This document shows positions 6,324 to 58,161 of a stretch of 64,000 bases of DNA, piece by piece. This DNA comes from Fidelibacterota bacterium (GTDB lineage Bacteria > Fidelibacterota > Marinisomatia > SCGC-AAA003-L08 > JACNLC01): the NCBI GenBank assembly GCA_014381725.1, contig JACNLC010000061.1, positions 2-64,001 on the forward strand. The letters run 5' to 3'. The position numbers were made by a program, and so were the translations under genes. The number at the start of each line of letters is the position of its first letter. Positions within the stretch are counted from its first letter, which is position 1. Below the pieces are notes generated by a model. The model had not been told where the DNA came from. It made no database searches and saw nothing but the letters and a program-made list of their open reading frames with translations.

Positions 6324-6501
6324 GTTTCCCAAAAAAGTGTCTTTTAATAAGTGATAAATTACCTAAATTTAGAGATAGTTGCAGAGGATAGAATCCTGTA
6401 GTAAGTAAATTGAAAGGTAAAGTATTGAAATAAATCCGATTTACCATTTTAATGAGGTAAAATTGGGAATAGAATTGATAAATGTTATTACAATTGTGGA
6501 G

Positions 6502-7942: not shown

Positions 7943-8734
7943 ATGCGTCTTGAAGTATTTATAAATAAACCAGAGCAGGATGCAAATGATACACCTATTA
8001 TTTTTATACATGGTGCTTGTCATTCTGCTTGGTGTTGGGCAGAACATTTTCAAAACTATTTCGCTGATAAGAAATTTGAATCGCACGCTATTAGTTTGAG
8101 CGGGCACGGTAATAGTTACAGTTGTAAGAATATTAAATTAAAAAGAATATCAGACTATGTGAATGATGTTCGATATATTGCATCAAAATTTGATAAACCA
8201 CCGATATTAATTGGACATTCAATGGGTGGCTATATTGCACAGAAATATGCTAAAGATCACAAAGCATCTGCACTAGTTTTAATGAATTCAGTAGCACCTA
8301 TAGGGTTTTACAAAACACTTTTAAAATTAGCAAGGAGACATCCTCTTAAATTCTTAAAATCTACTTTAACTTTTAATATATCTTCATATCTTACAAATCC
8401 TAGGATATTTAGAGATTTATACTTTACAAAAGATACTCCCAAACATATTGTAAATAAATACAATCATTTACTTCAAGACGAATCTTATATGGCATTTTTG
8501 GACATGTTATTTACTAGAGTACCTAAATCAAGTTTTGAGGATCTGCCGATATTGGTCATCGGAGGGGAAAACGATAAAATCACATCCCAAAATGATATCA
8601 AACAAACTGCAAAATATCTAAATGCTAAAGATGTTAAAGTATTTGCAAATATGGCACACGATATGATGCTAGAATCAGAGTGGCAATCAGTTGCTGATTT
8701 TATAATAGCTTGGTTAAACGGTATAAAATCGTAA
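7943..8734 (+). CDS. Alpha/beta-fold hydrolase
   Basis: Nucleophile elbow GHSMGG, an oxyanion-region HG (FIHGACHS), and a C-terminal His (MAHDMM). Confidence 0.8.
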   Translation: MRLEVFINKPEQDANDTPIIFIHGACHSAWCWAEHFQNYFADKKFESHAISLSGHGNSYSCKNIKLKRISDYVNDVRYIASKFDKPPILIGHSMGGYIAQKYAKDHKASALVLMNSVAPIGFYKTLLKLARRHPLKFLKSTLTFNISSYLTNPRIFRDLYFTKDTPKHIVNKYNHLLQDESYMAFLDMLFTRVPKSSFEDLPILVIGGENDKITSQNDIKQTAKYLNAKDVKVFANMAHDMMLESEWQSVADFIIAWLNGIKS

Positions 8735-26229: not shown

Positions 26230-26340
26230 TCAATCCTCGAAGGTTTTGTAGTTAAAGGAAGTATCTGGCTCGTCGGTAAAACGACTTACAGTTGCGGGTC
26301 AGCTTCGGACTTACACCGAATTCCTTCCAAATTATCTATT
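26230..26340 (-). promoter_or_regulatory. Cobalamin (B12) riboswitch
   Basis: The minus-strand reading is GGAAGGAATTCGGTGTAAGTCCGAAGCTGACCCGCAACTGTAAG...GAGCCAGATACTTCC. This matches the conserved GGTG.AA.TCC / GCTG.CCCGCAACTGTAA core and a B12-box-like AGCCAGATAC. Confidence 0.85.
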
Positions 26341-26389
26341 GCAAAAAGCACCAAAAATTAAGGGAAATAATTGGTTAATTCTAACACTC

Positions 26390-33912: not shown

Positions 33913-36198
33913 ATGAAGAAAATATCAAGAAAAGAATTTATTAAAACATCAGCTGCAGTTTCTGCAGCCGCAGGTATAGGTGTTTCTCTATTTCCAGGAA
34001 TGACCTATGCAAAAAATTCCAGTAGTATGAATTGGCATAAATCAGTTTGTCGTTATTGTGGTGTAGGTTGTGGTGTAATGGTTGGTGAAAAAGATGGTAA
34101 AGTTGTAGCTGTGAAAGGTGATGAGTTGAACCCAATTAACAAAGGTCATCTTTGCGTGAAGTCACTTTATCTACCAAAAGCGATTAATTCCAAAACTCGT
34201 TTAGCTCATCCAATGATTCGCAAAAATGGTAAATTGGAGAAAGCATCTTGGGAAGAAGCATTGGATTTAGTTGCAAAGAAATTCAATCAAATACGTAAAG
34301 CTCACGGAGGAAATGCGTTAGCATTTTATGGTTCTGGTCAGGCAGAAACTGAAGAAACCTATATGGCTAACAAACTTTTCAAAGGTTGTATTGGTACCAA
34401 TAATGTAGAAGGAAATCCACGACTTTGCATGGCAAGTGCTGTAGGTGGTTATCTCACAAGTTTGGGTGCTGATGAGCCAGCGGGTCTTTACGAAGATATA
34501 GAAAAATCGGAAATGTTTTTACTTGTCGGTTCGAATACTGCTGAAGCACATCCGATTGTTTTTGAACGAATTATGCGTCATAAAAACAAAAATCCCAATG
34601 TGAAAATCGTAGTGATTGATCCAAGAAAAACTCCGACAGACCAAGTTGGAGATTTACATCTATTTCCGAATCCTGGTTTTGATCTAGCAATTTTCAATGC
34701 AATGGCTTTTGTTTTAATTAATGAGGGTTACGCAGATAAATCATTTGTTGAGAAACACACATTTATCAAGGATAATAAAAAGAACATTCACACATTTGAG
34801 GATTATAAAAAATTCCTCGAAGATTTTACTCCTGAAAAAGCGGAGAAAATTAGTGGAGTTCCTGCACAACAAATCATCAAAGCTGCAAGAATGTTTGGAA
34901 AAGCCAAGACTTCTATGTCGCTTTGGACAATGGGTTTGAATCAACGAATTGGTGGAGTTTGGGCAAATAATCTAATCCATAACTTACATTTGTTAACCGG
35001 CAAGATTGGTGTACCGGGCAGTGATTCCTTTTCATTAACTGGTCAGCCCAATGCCTGCGGAGGTGTTCGTGAAGGTGGTGGATTATGTCATCTATTACCG
35101 GGGCATCATTTAGTTGTTAAAGAAGCTCATCGTAAAAAGGTTGCAAAAGTTTGGGGAGTACCAGCGAGCAACATTCAACCGAAACCTGGTAAACATACTA
35201 TTGCGATGTTTTCTGCACTAAATGCGGGTGAAATCAAAGGTATCTACATTATGTGTACAAATCCTGCACATTCATTACCTAATTCCCGTAAATATTGGAA
35301 AGGTTTGAAAGAACAGTTTGTAGTTGTTGCAGAATCATTTTTCCCAACAATGACAACTGAATATGCCGATGTTGTGCTTCCAGCCGCATTTTGGACGGAA
35401 AAAGAAGGTGTTTACGGGTGTACAGAACGACGCTCTCAGTATATGCCTAAAGTGGTTGAACCACAAGGTGAAGCTATTTGGGATGCCTTTATACTTCGTG
35501 ATTTAGCAAAGAAAATGGGGTTTGATAAAGAATTTGCTAAATACGAAACTGCTGAAATTATGTGGGACGAATACCGAGGACTTACTGCAGGTAAAGATAT
35601 GAACTTAATGGGTGCACCATACAGTCGTTTGAAGAAAGTTCGTGGATTAACTTGGCCTGTGCCAACGGAAGACCATCCAGGAACTTACAAACGATTTACT
35701 GATGGTGACCCGATTTATGATTCTAAATGGTCAAGTAAAGCGAAGAGTGATGGACGAAGAATGTGGTTTTACGGTCCTAAAGCGAAAGATGGAAAAGCGA
35801 CTATCTGGATGAGACCACATAAAGACCCTGCTGAAGTACCAAGCAAGGAATATCCTTATGCTTTGACCACAGGTCGTGTATTGGAACATTGGCATACATT
35901 AACGATGACAGGAACTTCTCCACAACTAAATCGTGCAGTGCCAAAAGCGTATGTGGAAATTCATCCAAGCGATGCCAAAAAAGAAGGCATCAAAAATAAA
36001 GAAATGGTTTTGGTTGAATCTCCACGAGGTAAACTTGAAATTGAAGCTAGAGTCATTGACAGACCAATTCCAGGAACGATATTTGTACCTTGGCATTGGC
36101 CAGAATCTCCGATTAATGTGCTTTGTAATGATGCGTTTGATCCTGGTTCAAAAGAACCTGAATACAAAGTTGCAGCTGCGAAGATAACCAAAGCTTAA
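33913..36198 (+). CDS. napA: Periplasmic nitrate reductase catalytic subunit, monomeric type (molybdopterin oxidoreductase)
   Basis: Tat-like signal (SRKEFIKTSAAVSAAAGIG..TYA), [4Fe-4S] motif CRYCGVGCGV...C, Mo-ligand region NPRLCMASAVGGY, GSNTAEAHPI, and a C-terminal DPGSKEPEYKVAAAKI. A NapD gene is adjacent. Confidence 0.85.
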   Translation: MKKISRKEFIKTSAAVSAAAGIGVSLFPGMTYAKNSSSMNWHKSVCRYCGVGCGVMVGEKDGKVVAVKGDELNPINKGHLCVKSLYLPKAINSKTRLAHPMIRKNGKLEKASWEEALDLVAKKFNQIRKAHGGNALAFYGSGQAETEETYMANKLFKGCIGTNNVEGNPRLCMASAVGGYLTSLGADEPAGLYEDIEKSEMFLLVGSNTAEAHPIVFERIMRHKNKNPNVKIVVIDPRKTPTDQVGDLHLFPNPGFDLAIFNAMAFVLINEGYADKSFVEKHTFIKDNKKNIHTFEDYKKFLEDFTPEKAEKISGVPAQQIIKAARMFGKAKTSMSLWTMGLNQRIGGVWANNLIHNLHLLTGKIGVPGSDSFSLTGQPNACGGVREGGGLCHLLPGHHLVVKEAHRKKVAKVWGVPASNIQPKPGKHTIAMFSALNAGEIKGIYIMCTNPAHSLPNSRKYWKGLKEQFVVVAESFFPTMTTEYADVVLPAAFWTEKEGVYGCTERRSQYMPKVVEPQGEAIWDAFILRDLAKKMGFDKEFAKYETAEIMWDEYRGLTAGKDMNLMGAPYSRLKKVRGLTWPVPTEDHPGTYKRFTDGDPIYDSKWSSKAKSDGRRMWFYGPKAKDGKATIWMRPHKDPAEVPSKEYPYALTTGRVLEHWHTLTMTGTSPQLNRAVPKAYVEIHPSDAKKEGIKNKEMVLVESPRGKLEIEARVIDRPIPGTIFVPWHWPESPINVLCNDAFDPGSKEPEYKVAAAKITKA

Positions 36199-41698: not shown

Positions 41699-41724
41699 GC
41701 GGAGGTTGTTGATGCAACCTCCGC
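41699..41724 (+). terminator. Perfect 10-bp stem-loop at the end of the respiratory operon (terminator or processing site, no clear U-tract)
   Basis: GCGGAGGTTG-TTGATG-CAACCTCCGC, followed by AAAACTCC. Confidence 0.35.
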
Positions 41725-41810
41725 AAAACTCCGAGTTATTTTTCCTACTTTCAATGAATATGGAAAAGTAACCGATAGGGTGAAATGGGAAACGATTTTA
41801 CCTCCCGAAC
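41725..41810 (+). promoter_or_regulatory. Candidate molybdenum cofactor (Moco) riboswitch
   Basis: CTCCGAG ... GGAAAAG ... CCGATAGGGTGAAATGGGAAAC ... CCTCCC lies directly 5' of moaA. This resembles, from memory, the conserved blocks of the Moco RNA motif. Confidence 0.5.
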
Positions 41811-42851
41811 TTGGAAAGGAGATTTGAAATAATTTTACAAACAAAAAATAATTCCTATAATGGAATTTCTAAACAACTCAGCGATAACTTCGGAAGGAAG
41901 ATTACATATCTGCGTGTAGCAATTACAGACCGTTGTAACTTGCGATGCAAATATTGTATGCCCGAAAATGGTATCCAATCAATCCCACACGAAAATGTTT
42001 TAACTTTTGAAGAACATCTAAGAATAATCCGATTGTCTTCAAAATTTGGTGTTAACAAAATAAGAGTTACTGGAGGAGAACCATTTGTTAGAAAAGGTAT
42101 AATCAAGTTCTTGCGAGATGTTAAACAAATTTCTGGAATTGAGAACATACACATAACAACTAATGGAATTAGCACATCTAAGTTTGCAGATGTGTTAAAT
42201 GAAATCGGAATTTCCGGAATTAATTTAAGCCTCGATACTTTGGATGAACAGAGATTCCATAAAATTACACGCCGAGATTTATTCGCAAATGTATGGAAAT
42301 CAATACAAAAAATAATTGAGTTAGAAATTCCGTTAAAAATCAATGCTGTTATTCAAAATGATTTCAACACCGATGAAATCATACCATTAGCAAATTTAGC
42401 TAAAGAATATCCGATTGATGTCCGATTTATTGAAGAAATGCCTTTTAATGGGACTGGAAAATTTACTTCAAAACCGTTCACAGGGAAACAGATTTATCAA
42501 ACTTTAGAGGAAGAATATCCAGACATAGAGCAAATTCTGAATAATGGTTCTACAGCTAAAATGTATAAAATTCCTGAGTTTACTGGAAAAGTTGGAATTA
42601 TAGGAGCATACTCGCGAACCTTTTGCTCCGCTTGTAATCGAATTCGATTAACATCAACTGGAATGCTAAAAACCTGTTTATACGATGATGGAATACTAAA
42701 CTTGAAAGATTTGTTGAGAAGTAATGCATCGGATAGTGATATTATAAGAGAAATCCAAAATAGTATTGGAAACCGAAATAAAGATGGATTTGTGTCTGAA
42801 TCTTTGAAAAAAACGAAAAACTATAATGCAATGGTGAACATTGGGGGATAA
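41811..42851 (+). CDS. moaA: GTP 3',8-cyclase (radical SAM, Moco biosynthesis)
   Basis: YLRVAITDRCNLRCKYCMP, RVTGGEP, and a C-terminal CSACNRIRLTSTGMLKTCL. The start is uncertain (TTG 41811, or ATA 41829 located 7 nt after AGGAG). Confidence 0.9.
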   Translation: MERRFEIILQTKNNSYNGISKQLSDNFGRKITYLRVAITDRCNLRCKYCMPENGIQSIPHENVLTFEEHLRIIRLSSKFGVNKIRVTGGEPFVRKGIIKFLRDVKQISGIENIHITTNGISTSKFADVLNEIGISGINLSLDTLDEQRFHKITRRDLFANVWKSIQKIIELEIPLKINAVIQNDFNTDEIIPLANLAKEYPIDVRFIEEMPFNGTGKFTSKPFTGKQIYQTLEEEYPDIEQILNNGSTAKMYKIPEFTGKVGIIGAYSRTFCSACNRIRLTSTGMLKTCLYDDGILNLKDLLRSNASDSDIIREIQNSIGNRNKDGFVSESLKKTKNYNAMVNIGG

Positions 42852-52542: not shown

Positions 52543-52918
52543 GGTTCTTCACAATAAACGATACTTTTCGTTGTGAACCTTAAAACATTGCCAGAATCCC
52601 TGTACAGTCGCAAGCTCCTTACCGGGTAGGAAGGATTACCCCGCAGAGCTGGGCAGGCAGGATTAATAGATATACAGGATTTATCTCAATTATTAGTTTA
52701 GTAGATTGTTCTTTTTATCTTGACAGAAAAAGAACCAAAAAGGTCAAGGTGACACTCAATTTGCTAAAACAAATACTTTCATTCCTAAAAGAAATAAACT
52801 TGTCAGTCAGTTGACTGACTTCAGACAGCATTTCTTTTTAAACGGAATTCAACTTTTGTTTTTATACGCAAATTGAGTAAGGCCAAATTCAATAAAGTAC
52901 TCAAATCTGTGAAGAACC
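52543..52918. repeat. MITE-like repeat, copy A (376 bp, with an extra GC-rich insert)
   Basis: Terminal inverted repeats GGTTCTTCACA / TGTGAAGAACC. The left 22 nt and right ~243 nt are about 90% identical to 57854-58161. Confidence 0.7.
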
Positions 52919-53096: not shown

Positions 53097-53270
53097 ATGA
53101 AACAAAAAACCCAAATTTCGCCGGTTGAAACACTGGACTCTACTGCAGGATATGATATCCGAACCATTCAGGATTTATTAGGTCATAAAAGCTTACAAAC
53201 AACCATGGTTTACACGCATGTAATGAACAAAGGACCAATGGGTGTGAAAAGTCCCGGGGACAATTTATGA
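53097..53270 (+). pseudogene. intI: Integron integrase C-terminal fragment (truncated)
   Basis: Translation ...[41 protein letters not shown] matches the IntI C-terminus (GYDIRTVQ.LLGH...TTMIYTHVL..G..GV.SP.D). The upstream ~260 aa of an integrase are absent. Confidence 0.7.
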
Positions 53271-53290
53271 AAGACAAATTTCAATTATGT

Positions 53291-53451
53291 TTATCCCGCT
53301 GTTTTGGCGGGTTATCACATTTGAAAAAAGAGGTAATAATTCATATAAATGAATTTATTACAGCAAGTTACAAACAAAAACAAGAAAATGATTATACCGC
53401 TTGTTTGGCGGGTTATACAATATTATCTAAGCGGTATAATCACGGTTAGAA
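53291..53451 (+). other. attI-like region: two 27-nt direct repeats plus an inverted repeat and a GTTAGAA core
   Basis: TTATCCCGCTGTTTTGGCGGGTTATCA (53291) and TTATACCGCTTGTTTGGCGGGTTATAC (53392), then TATACCGC...GCGGTATA, and GTTAGAA at 53445-53451. Confidence 0.4.
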
Positions 53452-53483
53452 AGATTAAGAGTTAGTACAAAGGAGATAAACAA

Positions 53484-53837
53484 ATGAAGGCTCTGGAAAA
53501 AACACTCATCAGCACACTATTATTATTTGTTGTTTATTCTTGTGCGCCAACTACTCCAAGAATGACAACTAAAGAAATTATGCAGACTTGGATAGGTTCT
53601 CATCAATCTGAATTGATAAGACAGTGGGGTGCATACACAAGGACAATCGATGATGGTGCTGGCGGGAAAATTCTTATTTGGGAAGAACATTTTACAAAAA
53701 GTTCTACTACTACGCCATTTACGCTCTTTGGTACAACTTATTATTCACATAGTGGTGGTGGTAGCGGTGTGCGTTATCGTGATGTTTTCATAAATAAAGA
53801 TGGTGTTATTACTAATATAAAGTGGGGGAAGAGATAA
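53484..53837 (+). CDS. Cassette-encoded small lipoprotein of unknown function
   Basis: Signal peptide with lipobox (LLFVVYSC). AAAGGAG lies upstream. No recognised domain. Confidence 0.65.
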   Translation: MKALEKTLISTLLLFVVYSCAPTTPRMTTKEIMQTWIGSHQSELIRQWGAYTRTIDDGAGGKILIWEEHFTKSSTTTPFTLFGTTYYSHSGGGSGVRYRDVFINKDGVITNIKWGKR

Positions 53838-53850
53838 ATTTTATTAATCT

Positions 53851-53983
53851 TTCTAACCCTCACTCCACCGGACGGCTAAACTTGTGCGGTGAATTTGAGA
53901 TTTGTAGACAAAATGAAGACTTGTGTAATAAGGAAATTTAGTAGAATTGTCACGCCGTCCGCCGGTGAGTTTATTCGTTATCT
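53851..53983 (+). repeat. attC recombination site, long form (133 bp)
   Basis: TTCTAAC-CCTCACTCCACCGGACGGC ... GCCGTCCGCCGGTGAG-tttattc-GTTATCT. It is an imperfect palindrome with unpaired bases. Confidence 0.55.
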
Positions 53984-54109
53984 GCTAGGAGATTTCATAT
54001 TCTAAATGCAATAAAAACAGAAAAGAAAACAGGACAAGAGCCTTTTACTTTTAACGGAAAATCTTTACCAGAAAGCACTCTTTCCTTTTGGCAATGGTCA
54101 AGCTCAGAA

Positions 54110-54577
54110 TTGTTAGGAAATGCACTCAGGGGAGTTTTGGCAGAATTTATTGTTGCTTCAGCAATAGATGTTTTGGAAAAACCAAGAGAAGAATGGGATG
54201 CTTACGATTTAGTAACAAAACAAGGGCTAAAAGTTGAAATAAAATCATCTTCATATTTACAAAGTTGGAGACAAGACAGGCTTTCAAATATCATATTTGG
54301 AATTCAACCAACGCTAGTTTGGGAGGATATGAATAAGCGGAGTCAACAACCACAGCGACAAGCTGATATTTATGTGTTTTGTGTGCTTTCACACAAAGAT
54401 AAAGACACAGTTAATCCACTAAACTTAGACCAATGGGATTTTTATATTTTAGACACAGAAGTTTTAAATAGAAAAATACCGAAACAAAAAACCATAACTT
54501 TATCCAGTTTGCTAAAATTAGAACCAGTAAAAGTAAAATATGATGCTTTAAAAAATGAAATTAGTAAAAGCAGATAA
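54110..54577 (+). CDS. Cassette-encoded PD-(D/E)xK nuclease-like protein; the reading frame probably begins upstream near 53999
   Basis: D..E-x-K arrangement (EWDAYDLV...LKVEIKSS). The frame is open from 53969 and the upstream segment (FTFNGKSLPESTLSFWQWSSSEL) looks coding. AGGAG lies 7 nt before ATT 53999. Confidence 0.6.
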   Translation: MLGNALRGVLAEFIVASAIDVLEKPREEWDAYDLVTKQGLKVEIKSSSYLQSWRQDRLSNIIFGIQPTLVWEDMNKRSQQPQRQADIYVFCVLSHKDKDTVNPLNLDQWDFYILDTEVLNRKIPKQKTITLSSLLKLEPVKVKYDALKNEISKSR

Positions 54578-54628
54578 CAAATCATTCCAGCCGACCGCTA
54601 ACGCGGCAGCTGAATTCATTCGTTAGCC
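54572..54628 (+). repeat. attC recombination site, short form (57 bp)
   Basis: AGATAAC-aaatcattc-CAGCCGACCGC-taac-GCGGCAGCTG-aattcattc-GTTAGCC. The R'' box overlaps the cassette stop codon. Confidence 0.55.
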
Positions 54629-54786: not shown

Positions 54787-54801
54787 TGTTAATCATTCTC
54801 A
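54787..54801. promoter_or_regulatory. Fur box
   Basis: TGTTAATCATTCTCA matches the 7-1-7 Fur consensus TGATAATnATTATCA at 13 of 15 positions. It lies about 130 nt upstream of fur. Confidence 0.6.
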
Positions 54802-54932
54802 ATAACAGGCATTATTTATTCTATAGATGAGAGAATTGACCTTGATTTTGGAGTCAGGGTTGATATTTTTCAATCGGAATTCAATTATCATTTACTGCCT
54901 GGAATTACATTAGTATTCTAATTGGAGGGAAA

Positions 54933-55376
54933 ATGAATACAGAACCTTATTTGGAAGATTTTAAACGAATTCTAAAAAAAGAGAACTTGAGATATACTTC
55001 TCAGCGAGTTGAAATATTAAAAGAAATTGCAAGTAGTAATCATCATTTAGAATGCGAAGATATTTATTTTTCATTACGAGAAAAGGGAGTGGATGCTTCA
55101 TTGGCAACAATTTATAGAACAATGGATTTACTAGTTAAGCATCAGTTTGTGCGAAAATTGAATATAGGTGAAGGTCGTGCTCGTTACGAAAATAAAATTG
55201 ACGGTGAACATCACGATCATTTGATTTGTACGGAATGTGGAAATATTATTGAATTTGTTGAAAATGATATTGAAGTTCTGCAAGAAGAAATCGGCAAGAA
55301 ATACGGATTTAAACTAACCAAACACATACACCAACTTTATGGAATTTGTGAGGATTGTCAAAATGAAACTGACTGA
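54933..55376 (+). CDS. fur: Fur family transcriptional regulator
   Basis: Winged-helix region (ATIYRTMDLLVK), the metal site HHDHLICTECG, and a C-terminal CEDC. Confidence 0.9.
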   Translation: MNTEPYLEDFKRILKKENLRYTSQRVEILKEIASSNHHLECEDIYFSLREKGVDASLATIYRTMDLLVKHQFVRKLNIGEGRARYENKIDGEHHDHLICTECGNIIEFVENDIEVLQEEIGKKYGFKLTKHIHQLYGICEDCQNETD

Positions 55377-57851: not shown

Positions 57852-57853
57852 GT

Positions 57854-58161
57854 GGTTCTTCACAATAAACGATACCACTTCCATCGACTTTCATGTCTAA
57901 TGTGTTCATAAAGAGATAACTGGATTAATCTCAATTATTAGTTTAGTTACTTGTTCTTTTTCTGTCAAGAGAAAAAGAACCAAAAAGGTCAAGGCGACAC
58001 TCAATTTATAAAACAACTATTTTCATTCCTAAAAGAAATAAACTTGTCCGTCAGTGACGGACTTCAGACAGCATTTCTTTTTAAACGAAATTCAACTATT
58101 GTTTTTATACGCAAATTGAGTAAGGCCAAATTCAATAAAGTACTCAAATCTGTGAAGAAAC
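57854..58161. repeat. MITE-like repeat, copy B (308 bp)
   Basis: Terminal inverted repeats GGTTCTTCACA / TGTGAAGAAAC. ATTAAGT flanks both sides (57847-57853 and 58165-58171). Confidence 0.7.

Follow-up and report, generated by a model that had tools for sequence, protein, structure and literature searches.

The window analysed here, a stretch of 64,000 nt from a Candidatus Marinimicrobia MAG (FCB group), very probably contains what is left of a small, sedentary chromosomal integron whose layout was co-oriented ("inverted"). In its present form the locus belongs to an already known kind, the inverted-type CALIN that retains an intI pseudogene. An earlier sequence-only reading had proposed a small inactivated CALIN-like array with an intI stub in an FCB-type genome, and the stub, the attC sites, the cassette boundaries and the host all support that proposal. 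The end of the ORF, the GTTAGAA box and both palindromes are present exactly where that reading had placed them. For the window itself the outcome is confirmatory and not surprising, and the locus, though well documented, is an ordinary representative of its kind. Its features are as follows:

52544-52918, strand not given: MITE-like repeat, between the upstream MMPL transporter gene and the stub
53097-53270, + strand: intI stub ORF of 57 codons; codons 17-57 (53145-53267) and the stop derive from the 3' end of an integron integrase gene, codons 1-16 are unrelated
53271-53444, + strand: attI-like region, from repeats, folds and alignment to related loci
53445-53451, + strand: GTTAGAA, R box at the junction of attI and cassette 1; crossover G/TT between 53445 and 53446
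53446-53977, + strand: cassette 1, 532 bp, bounded by G/TT boxes
53851-53983, + strand: attC1, 133 bp, TTCTAAC...GTTATCT, from covariance model R2
53978-54622, + strand: cassette 2, 645 bp, which recurs in the L182 array
54572-54628, + strand: attC2, 57 bp, AGATAAC...GTTAGCC, from covariance models R1 and R2

Integrase gene remnant

The 57-codon ORF had been read as ending in an IntI-type C-terminus. In the NCBIfam profile search the stub matched positions 274-315 of the 315 positions of TIGR02249 with an E-value of 2e-15, and its match to the XerC model was weaker (E 1.1e-9). No Xer model fits the motif LLGH...YTHV and the tail after the catalytic Tyr as well as TIGR02249 does. The closest intact relative is P0021, an IntI of 326 aa with 93% identity to the stub; it scored 444.6 bits on TIGR02249 (cut-off 265) over positions 1-314 in one stretch. 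An IntI is a tyrosine recombinase with an additional domain between patches II and III; the match of P0021 spans this IntI-specific insertion, and the same region falls in the deleted part of the window gene. The best profile match and the kinship with P0021 bear out the IntI-type C-terminus, and a grouping with Xer or phage integrases, which had been named as the result that would overturn it, was not what the fragment gave. Judged by these similarities, the recombinase fragment is derived from IntI and not from Xer or phage.

A tblastn search with a near-full-length relative gave a match restricted to 53145-53267, with 93% identity, and no further IntI-like pieces were found upstream of 53145 or elsewhere in the 64-kb window. 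The missing N-terminal part had been estimated at ~260 aa, but it is larger: with relatives of 326 aa and homology that begins at 53145, about 285 aa are absent. Comparison of the window stub with other stubs and with intact genes showed 11-22 synonymous and 3-5 non-synonymous codon changes, a pattern similar to that between intact intI genes.

attI region and cassette junction

The attI-like region of ~175 nt has conserved counterparts in six or more related loci; in L175, L092, L087, L091, L174, L176 and L178 it can be aligned with the stretch that separates the stop of intI from the first cassette. Compensatory changes are found in its palindromes across the aligned loci, and the region is conserved beside both intact and decayed intI of the same lineage. 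It carries a GTTACAA box (53367-53373) and two direct repeats with hairpins. The sequence-only reading was right that there are two direct repeats, but not about their length: they cover 53287-53335 and 53388-53436 (49 nt, 73% identity), and the 27 nt given for them correspond roughly to the conserved core. Likewise an inverted repeat does precede GTTAGAA, but it is a perfect repeat of 14 bp (53389-53402 and 53429-53442) in place of the 8 bp described; it ends 2 nt before the crossover box and has a fold z of -3.8 to -4.8. The junction GTTAGAA is at the position where near-identical contigs of sister loci switch cassettes. We assign the region as the attI site for cassette insertion, with putative integrase-binding sequence. 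A 60-codon ORF across attI was considered as a gene and rejected; its frame is not conserved among relatives.

attC sites

The attC sites are defined by R'' (..AAC) and R' (GTT..) boxes at the ends of an imperfect palindrome of ~57-141 bp, and both palindromes of the locus have this form. In attC1 the parts are R'' TTCTAAC, L'' CCACCGGAC, a long variable loop, L' CCGGTGA and R' GTTATCT; in attC2 they are R'' AGATAAC, L'' CAGCCGAC, L' GCAGCTGA and R' GTTAGCC. Unpaired bases had been reported for the sites, and an unpaired T and an unpaired G were seen as extrahelical bases on the '' arm of attC2.

No family was found in the locus by an Rfam scan at gathering thresholds, and no Rfam attC model matched. 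A surrogate covariance model was trained on 21 attC sites from 13 loci of other phyla only, in an alignment with 90% of the structure paired and covariation of 0.53 (0.15 in shuffles); the training sites were chosen by a heuristic and the E-values are rough. With model R2, which has natural loops, attC2 scored 34.8 bits (E 5e-7) and attC1 23.0 bits (E 7e-4), both on the + strand, with the attC1 match extending over the full model. These two sites, at exactly the coordinates first given for them, were the only significant matches in 64 kb (next best E = 3.3), and both palindromes thus score as attC with a model built on other phyla. The arms-only model R1 found attC2 (33.3 bits, E 1.4e-6) and missed the long-loop attC1, while R2 misses the very long attC (~170-190 nt) in L092 and a degenerate site in L007. 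When the 3,990 pairs of AAC...GTT from the two strands of the window were ranked by a terminal-stem score, ranks 1, 2, 3 and 7 belonged to this locus. The terminal-stem score was used in place of the raw folding energy of whole AAC...GTT intervals, which did not separate the sites, and a subset of single geometry in place of an alignment of attC arms by sequence only, which put the 3' arms out of register.

Folding of the bottom strands, which had been suggested as a check, gave a clearly more stable bottom strand for attC2 (-12.7 kcal/mol, z -4.1, vs -8.0 for the top) and a weak difference for attC1 (-13.8 vs -12.2). The GC content is 0.42 in attC1 and 0.49 in attC2 vs 0.336 in the window, in line with the earlier remark that the sites are richer in GC than their surroundings. 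Homologues of attC1 are found among the attC sites of L092 and L007, and 23 nt of it are identical in the attC of the cassette adjoining the intact intI in L176. The 3' arm of attC1 also coincides in part with a terminator-like pattern.

Gene cassettes

Two ORFs, each trailed by a palindrome, had been noted, and they correspond to two cassettes (53446-53977 and 53978-54622) with boundaries at G/TT. The ORF of cassette 1 (53484-53837) encodes a predicted lipoprotein-like product of 117 aa, with no family in Pfam, NCBIfam, PHROG or PADLOC. The gene of cassette 2 ends at 54577, its stop TAA lying within R'', and N-terminal alignment points to ATT at 53999 as the probable start codon, with AGGAGA 7 nt upstream. 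Its predicted product of ~192 aa belongs to the family PF26887 (T4 endonuclease IV-like) in precomputed annotations and has 1,551 homologues; the NCBI call on the identical contig L002 is also 192 aa. In local scans against Pfam, NCBIfam, PHROGs and PADLOC this protein had no significant family match.

Cassette 1 starts with TTAGAAAGATTAA (53446-53458), a sequence complementary to TTAATCTTTCTAA, which lies immediately ahead of where the R'' box of attC1 ends. The cassette start and its own attC R'' share 14 complementary nt in cassette 1 (GTTAGAAAGATTAA and TTAATCTTTCTAAC) and 9 nt in cassette 2 (GTTATCTGC and GCAGATAAC). Complementarity between a cassette start and its own R'' is the signature of a circular intermediate expected of integron cassettes.

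Cassette 2 was also found in another place. Positions 53976-54627 of the window are 95.4% identical in nucleotides to positions 627-1278 of L182, an unrelated array with five attC sites; the neighbours differ on both sides, and the homology stops at both crossover boxes. This alignment shows that cassette 2 is mobile and occurs as a unit in a second array, and the sharing of a cassette between this lineage and an unrelated attC array is direct evidence that cassettes are exchanged in the ocean.

Orientation and related loci

The stub, both cassette ORFs and both attC model matches are all on the + strand, as expected from the co-oriented intI that had been proposed, and the same order is the rule among relatives. 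The intact relatives L176, L178/L179 and L180 have intI, a homologous attI and cassettes in this order on one strand, and L176 uses the attC family of the window attC1. Among the matches listed for IntI relatives, 18 loci had downstream co-oriented arrays and six were canonical. Scans of genomes and metagenomes with the stub alignment listed relatives of 57-79%; the closest Marinimicrobia loci were not among these matches and were reached via exact-protein look-ups.

Intact IntI genes exist in Marinimicrobia MAGs (e.g. P0029). The intI stubs of Marinimicrobia occupy several different chromosomal sites, nested stubs recur across the lineage, and the arrays are very short, with 1-5 cassettes. 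L174, whose intI has internal deletions, and L087, with a stub of 51 codons, occupy one and the same site, which follows a beta-eliminating lyase gene.

Beside this 51-codon stub, contigs of the sister locus are 99.75% identical over 6,330 nt and then become unrelated exactly at G/TTAG. The first cassette differs among them: L087 has GTTAGGC at the junction and a Cys-rich ORF, L088 and L089 have GTTAGCC and a different ORF. Divergence at the cassette junction is found beside intact intI too, between L178 and L179. Comparison of cassette turnover across genomes had been suggested. Different first cassettes are seen at the sister locus, and at the window's own locus no turnover was found among the ten contigs with the exact locus, all 100% identical.

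Comparison with known integrons

A CALIN is a cluster of attC sites lacking an integron integrase, intI remnants were found near 15 of 279 CALINs, and intI oriented as the attC sites has been described (Cury et al. 2016, PMC4889954). A complete integron has a functional intI adjoining attI, and here 41 codons of intI are left; a CALIN has at least two clustered attC sites and no intI gene, and here the two attC sites are separated by 589 nt and intI is a stub. As in a CALIN with an intI pseudogene, the window combines a pair of attC sites not more than 4 kb apart with an adjacent C-terminal intI remnant, and functional intI is absent; unlike it, the remnant shares the strand of the cassettes and abuts a conserved attI. 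Because of these two differences, the platform itself is retained, and not just the array.

The locus resembles the inverted integron-integrase group (Treponema and others) in having intI, attI and cassettes on one strand with attI after the 3' end of intI, but it differs in its host (Marinimicrobia/Fidelibacterota), its truncated integrase and the 1-5 cassettes of the lineage arrays. Repeated inactivation of intI across a lineage by frameshifts and deletions, with arrays kept, is shared with the chromosomal integrons of Xanthomonas; these are canonical (divergent) in orientation and share a single ancestral site, ilvD, whereas the Marinimicrobia stubs are at several sites. Like the VCR of the Vibrio superintegron, a highly similar attC family of the lineage is common to cassettes and genomes, the attC1 type being found in L176, L092 and L007. 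However, the superintegron has hundreds of cassettes and the window lineage one to few, with a short classical attC type (attC2) mixed in.

In a literature search, we found no integron description for Marinimicrobia/Fidelibacterota. The locus offers a clean dissected example of a co-oriented chromosomal integron and its decay in an abundant uncultured marine phylum.

Proposed history of the locus

The ancestral layout would have been intI, attI and cassettes in this order, all on the + strand. A deletion probably took ~285 codons from the 5' side of intI, so that 41 in-frame codons at the 3' end of the gene remain, together with the attI region and two promoterless cassettes that each end in a functional-looking attC. 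The truncation may be fairly recent, because the stub keeps the substitution pattern of the intact gene. By itself the locus would be unable to recombine, and its attI and attC sites may still be substrates for an integrase supplied in trans. Transcription of the cassettes might come from an upstream promoter in the stub/attI region or from read-through; a scan for sigma-70 consensus promoters was at chance level (10 found vs 8.4 expected), the promoter type of the host phylum being outside the tool.

Alternative explanations

The stub with attI might not be a dead remnant but an orphan docking site, served by an integrase elsewhere in the genome or population, where cassettes are still inserted and excised. 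We regard it as a real possibility, though a doubtful one. The cassette swap beside the 51-codon stub and the recurring nested stubs suggest an integrase acting in trans, and intact IntI such as P0029 is available in Marinimicrobia MAGs. The attI and both attC of the window are intact, L178 and L179 show an equivalent pattern next to intact intI, and CALINs are described as mobilisable in trans (Cury 2016, PMC4889954). Against it, the window locus is invariant in the ten contigs, a second intI is absent from the 64-kb window, and homologous recombination importing another array behind a shared stub could also give the pattern of the sister locus.

Nested stubs beside a conserved attI and the swap at the sister locus raise the question of whether integrase-less platforms stay active in trans in the lineage as a whole. 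It is rather unlikely, in our view, that Marinimicrobia stubs with intact attI are live orphan docking platforms exchanging cassettes via an integrase encoded elsewhere, and that the final 22-55 intI codons have been kept in frame, repeatedly and at several independent chromosomal sites, because this DNA has a function, such as a cassette promoter or the integrase-binding sequence of co-oriented integrons. The wider pattern also bears on where the cassette promoter is located in inverted integrons.

Decay of a resident integron is also to be weighed against arrival of the stub, attI and cassettes already truncated, within a larger mobile segment such as the 5.6-kb stretch with fur-feoAB that is bracketed by MITE-like repeats. 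A second direct copy of the repeat (57853-58161) follows feoB, so that the segment lies between two copies that are ~90-95% identical and have terminal inverted repeats; ATATTAAG is found directly at the outer end of each copy, and mobilisation of a MITE-flanked integron has been reported. But the putative target duplication is ambiguous, as ATTAAG precedes the inner copy too, fur-feoAB is ordinary chromosomal cargo, and decay in situ is documented at the sister locus, which makes the import improbable. There are 226 nt between the MITE-like repeat and the truncation point, so the two are not adjacent, and these 226 nt had no match to any sequence retrieved.

A Xer or phage integrase remnant beside unrelated repeats or terminators, with no integron at all, is hardly credible: the stub alone does match XerC/XerD (E 1e-9 to 4e-8), in Pfam it passes only the generic Phage_integrase model, and the terminator-like pattern lies over the 3' arm of attC1, but this reading is refuted by the identity to P0021, an unambiguous IntI, by the attC model that scores both palindromes and nothing else in 64 kb, and by the mobility of cassette 2 as a unit, while the best NCBIfam match is the integron integrase, tail after the catalytic Tyr included, and the boundaries obey cassette logic.

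The intI remnant and its identity

The locus in the window is very probably a decayed, co-oriented chromosomal integron in a genome of the FCB group (Marinimicrobia), with a stub of the integrase gene intI, an attI conserved in the lineage and two genuine cassettes. A decayed co-oriented integron was what the sequence-only reading had proposed, and this was correct in substance, as judged from the IntI stub, the attC sites scored by a model, the mobility of cassette 2 and the intact co-oriented relatives. The main features are as follows.

53097-53270 (+): ORF of 57 codons, containing the intI stub
53287-53335 and 53388-53436: 49-nt unit in two copies at 73% identity, a small G+C hairpin in either
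53389-53402 and 53429-53442: perfect 14-bp inverted repeat, fold z about -4 to -5
53445-53451: GTTAGAA box, 2 nt beyond the inverted repeat
53851-53983 (+): attC1, imperfect palindrome of 133 bp, TTCTAAC...GTTATCT, G+C 0.42
54572-54628 (+): attC2, imperfect palindrome of 57 bp, AGATAAC...GTTAGCC, G+C 0.49

The 57-codon ORF ends as the sequence-only reading had quoted, and its IntI-type C-terminus was confirmed: the best match in NCBIfam was TIGR02249, a model for integron integrases (positions 274-315 of 315, E 2e-15), and this match takes in the tail beyond the catalytic tyrosine. Likeness to recombinases is limited to codons 17-57. With a near-full-length relative as tblastn query, 53145-53267 was aligned at 93% identity and no further integrase-like piece was found within the 64-kb window. 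The N-terminal part is thus missing as had been noted, but the loss is ~285 residues rather than ~260.

Because the IntI-specific insertion lies within the deleted part, the nearest intact relative was sought. The gene of contig L173 is 93% identical to the stub but is broken by a 1-nt frameshift; its repaired product (326 aa), protein P0021, is intact in other assemblies with 100% identity. With TIGR02249 (cut-off 265), P0021 gave a score of 444.6 bits in a single stretch covering model positions 1-314, and the Xer models matched it in two separate pieces only. Dozens of full-length proteins at 60-75% identity followed P0021, several of them named integron integrase by their sources; one of these is P0029, from a Candidatus Marinimicrobia MAG. 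Grouping of the fragment with Xer or phage integrases is ruled out by this 93%-identical IntI and by the TIGR02249 match of the stub, which is ahead of XerC (1.1e-9) and XerD (3.9e-8).

MAGs of Candidatus Marinimicrobia, which NCBI places in Fidelibacterota, FCB group, carry annotations of a protein identical to the stub. This placement matches the FCB-type genome proposed from the sequence.

attI region

Direct repeats, an inverted repeat and GTTAGAA had been described downstream of the stub; all are present, but the inverted repeat is of 14 bp and not 8. The ~175 nt from the intI stop to the first G|TT crossover point could be aligned in the window and in contigs L175, L092, L087, L091 and L174, and visibly similar sequence stands at the corresponding position in L176, L178 and L179. 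The common elements are a hairpin right after the intI stop, whose stem shows compensatory substitutions (CCCGC/GCGGG in the window vs CCTGC/GCAGG in L173 and L176), a GTTA box, and a co-varying inverted repeat whose end is 2 nt ahead of the crossover (GATTATAC/GTATAATC in the window vs GTATATAC/GTATATAC in L087).

An ORF of 60 codons (53267-53449) runs through the entire attI region, starting with an ATGA that overlaps the stub stop and ending with the TAG within GTTAGAA. In this it resembles the short ORFs that lie in attI of class 1 integrons. Because a 2-nt indel in relatives disrupts the frame, it is probably not a conserved gene.

attC sites

Two ORFs on the + strand are each trailed by an imperfect palindrome, as had been seen, and both palindromes are richer in G+C than the window (0.336). 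The Rfam scan gave no family within the integron locus. A surrogate attC model was built from ~170 loci encoding IntI relatives in other phyla. Candidate sites were AAC...GTT intervals with strong terminal stems, oriented by the rule of C before GTT and no G after AAC, which gave perfectly consistent strands in every array. The training set drew on 13 loci for 21 sites, non-redundant and all of a single geometry, with Marinimicrobia and the window excluded. In it the imposed R/L-box structure was 90% paired, and the covariation score was 0.53 vs 0.15 for shuffles and about 0.06-0.11 for partners slid.

The arms-only model (R1) found 54572-54628 (+) with 33.3 bits (E 1.4e-6) and nothing else in the window below E 0.8. 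The model keeping natural loops (R2) recovered both palindromes at exactly the coordinates first proposed: 54572-54628 (+) with 34.8 bits (E 5e-7) and 53851-53983 (+) with 23.0 bits (E 7e-4), the next-best match having E 3.3. These E-values are rough owing to shortened calibration, yet far separated from background. A model-free scan ranked the terminal stems of the 3,990 AAC...GTT pairs in the window, and those at the top were all within the integron locus. The bottom strand of attC2 folds more stably than the top strand (-12.7 vs -8.0 kcal/mol, z -4.1), as expected of attC, with unpaired T and G in the '' arm.

Rank 5 in the architecture scan went to another AAC...GTT interval (34581-34717), whose terminal stem is strong and A/T-rich; it was scored by neither R1 nor R2 and is probably an unrelated palindrome or terminator. 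Contig L092 has very long sites of the attC1 family (1700-1895 and 2525-2690, about 170-190 nt), in which the L-box region is internally duplicated and which the surrogate model missed.

Cassettes

Recombination occurs at G|TT, so complementarity is expected between the opening bases of a cassette and the R'' box in its own attC. Cassette 1 opens with TTAGAAAGATTAA and TTAATCTTTCTAAC precedes its attC (14 complementary nt including the G); cassette 2 opens with TTATCTGC and its attC starts with GCAGATAAC (9 complementary nt). The stems lengthen accordingly when the circular junctions are rebuilt. A copy of cassette 2 was found in metagenome contig L182 at 95.4% nucleotide identity, within an array of five model-positive attC sites and with other genes on either side; the alignment covers window 53976-54627, with the R' boxes of attC1 and attC2 at its two ends. 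Both cassettes are therefore real by boundary logic and mobility signatures, mobility being shown for cassette 2.

The cassette 2 product belongs to PF26887, a family named from T4 endonuclease IV, with >1,500 homologues whose named sources include Thioglobus and Sulfurimonas. In its gene (53999-54577) no ATG, GTG or TTG stands at the N-terminus common with the homologues. The ATT at 53999 lies 7 nt past AGGAGA and is aligned to the initiator Met of homologues P0145 and P0150, and Ile stands at this place in the closest homologues (P0141-P0144) too; ATT seems likely to be the start codon. NCBI calls a 192-aa product on an identical contig. Cassette 1 encodes a lipoprotein-like protein of 117 aa with no family match.

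Intact co-oriented relatives

Contig L176 shows the order intact intI (P0021), attI, GTTATGT, DUF975 cassette and attC. With the window it shares 81% identity in a block of 195 nt that takes in the 3' end of intI and the beginning of attI, and in its attC the first 23 nt past R'' are identical to attC1. L178/L179 and L180 have an intact intI in the same order, L180 with several cassettes, one carrying a ParE toxin gene. By this shared order the window locus is one of a family of chromosomal integrons that are short, co-oriented and specific to the lineage. For the IntI relatives fetched, the array was downstream and co-oriented in 18 loci and canonical in 6. The co-oriented layout was already described (Cury et al. 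2016, PMC4889954) for the 'inverted integron-integrase group', which the window locus resembles in having intI co-oriented with the cassettes.

Immediately upstream of intI in L176 (920-2141) are genes for a bAvd accessory protein and an RVT_1 reverse transcriptase, a pair typical of a diversity-generating retroelement.

Recurrent stubs and decay

Stubs were recurrent in Marinimicrobia-type contigs. Independent loci at different chromosomal sites retain only the last 22-55 intI codons beside a conserved attI, always in frame to the native stop, and with the window they form a nested series of 5' truncations:

L007: about 47 codons, in the ispE-prmC interval
L175: about 47 codons
L092: about 55 codons, then three attC1-type cassettes
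L087: 25 intI codons kept, in an ORF of 51 codons
L091: about 24 codons, then an acetyltransferase cassette

L174 and L087 occupy one chromosomal site, behind a beta-eliminating lyase gene. L174 mostly retains intI, with two internal deletions, and L087 has only the 51-codon ORF, which documents stepwise decay in place.

Between the window stub and other stubs or intact genes there are 11-22 synonymous and 3-5 non-synonymous codon changes. This is the pattern also seen between intact genes, so the truncation was probably recent; alternatively, selection may act on the stub. Repeated intI inactivation with arrays retained is well known in Xanthomonas, and the Marinimicrobia stubs resemble that case. 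CALINs with intI pseudogenes nearby were also described (Cury et al. 2016, PMC4889954). The window locus is a solid case from an under-described phylum, unsurprising to a specialist; the recurrent stubs, with possible cassette exchange in trans, are most worth following.

Possible cassette exchange beside a stub

Over 6,330 nt, in which the 51-codon stub and attI lie, contigs of the L087 site from different samples share 99.75% identity, but L087 is unrelated to L088 and L089 from exactly the crossover box on (position 6330). Past this junction L087 has GTTAGGC, a Cys-rich ORF and an attC of 39.5 bits; in L088 and L089, GTTAGCC and another ORF stand there. A parallel with intact intI is given by L178 and L179, 99.9% identical up to GGTTA (position 8181) and then unrelated. 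Both switches are read as cassette replacement at population level. For the L087 site, the simplest reading would be that an integrase acting in trans exchanged the cassettes after the truncation; the alternative is homologous recombination importing another array behind a common stub. No such switch or cassette turnover was visible at the window's own locus, where the ten contigs with the stub are all 100% identical.

Genomic surroundings

On one side of the integron remnant is an MMPL transporter gene, on the other fur-feoA-feoB. A MITE-like repeat occurs in two direct copies (52544-52918 and 57853-58161), which enclose the stub, attI, both cassettes and fur-feoA-feoB. They have ~255 nt in common at ~90-95% identity and 11-nt terminal inverted repeats (GGTTCTTCACA / TGTGAAGAACC). 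ATATTAAG adjoins the outer end of both copies and may be the target duplication of a composite, though this is ambiguous. The distance from the repeat to the truncation point is 226 nt, so the repeat alone does not explain the intI deletion.

GC skew on the + strand is positive over most of the window. In sedentary integrons, attC bottom strands are reported on the leading-strand template; if + is the leading strand, those of the window would lie likewise.

Directly downstream of the remnant comes the regulatory region of the fur-feoAB operon. A TTGTTAATCATTCTCAATAACA palindrome resembling a Fur box stands at about 54787-54808; fur itself (54933-55376) begins about 125 nt further on. The Rfam scan also gave a molybdenum-cofactor riboswitch (41717-41837, 78 bits) and a cobalamin riboswitch (26240-26370, 49.8 bits), both unrelated to the integron.
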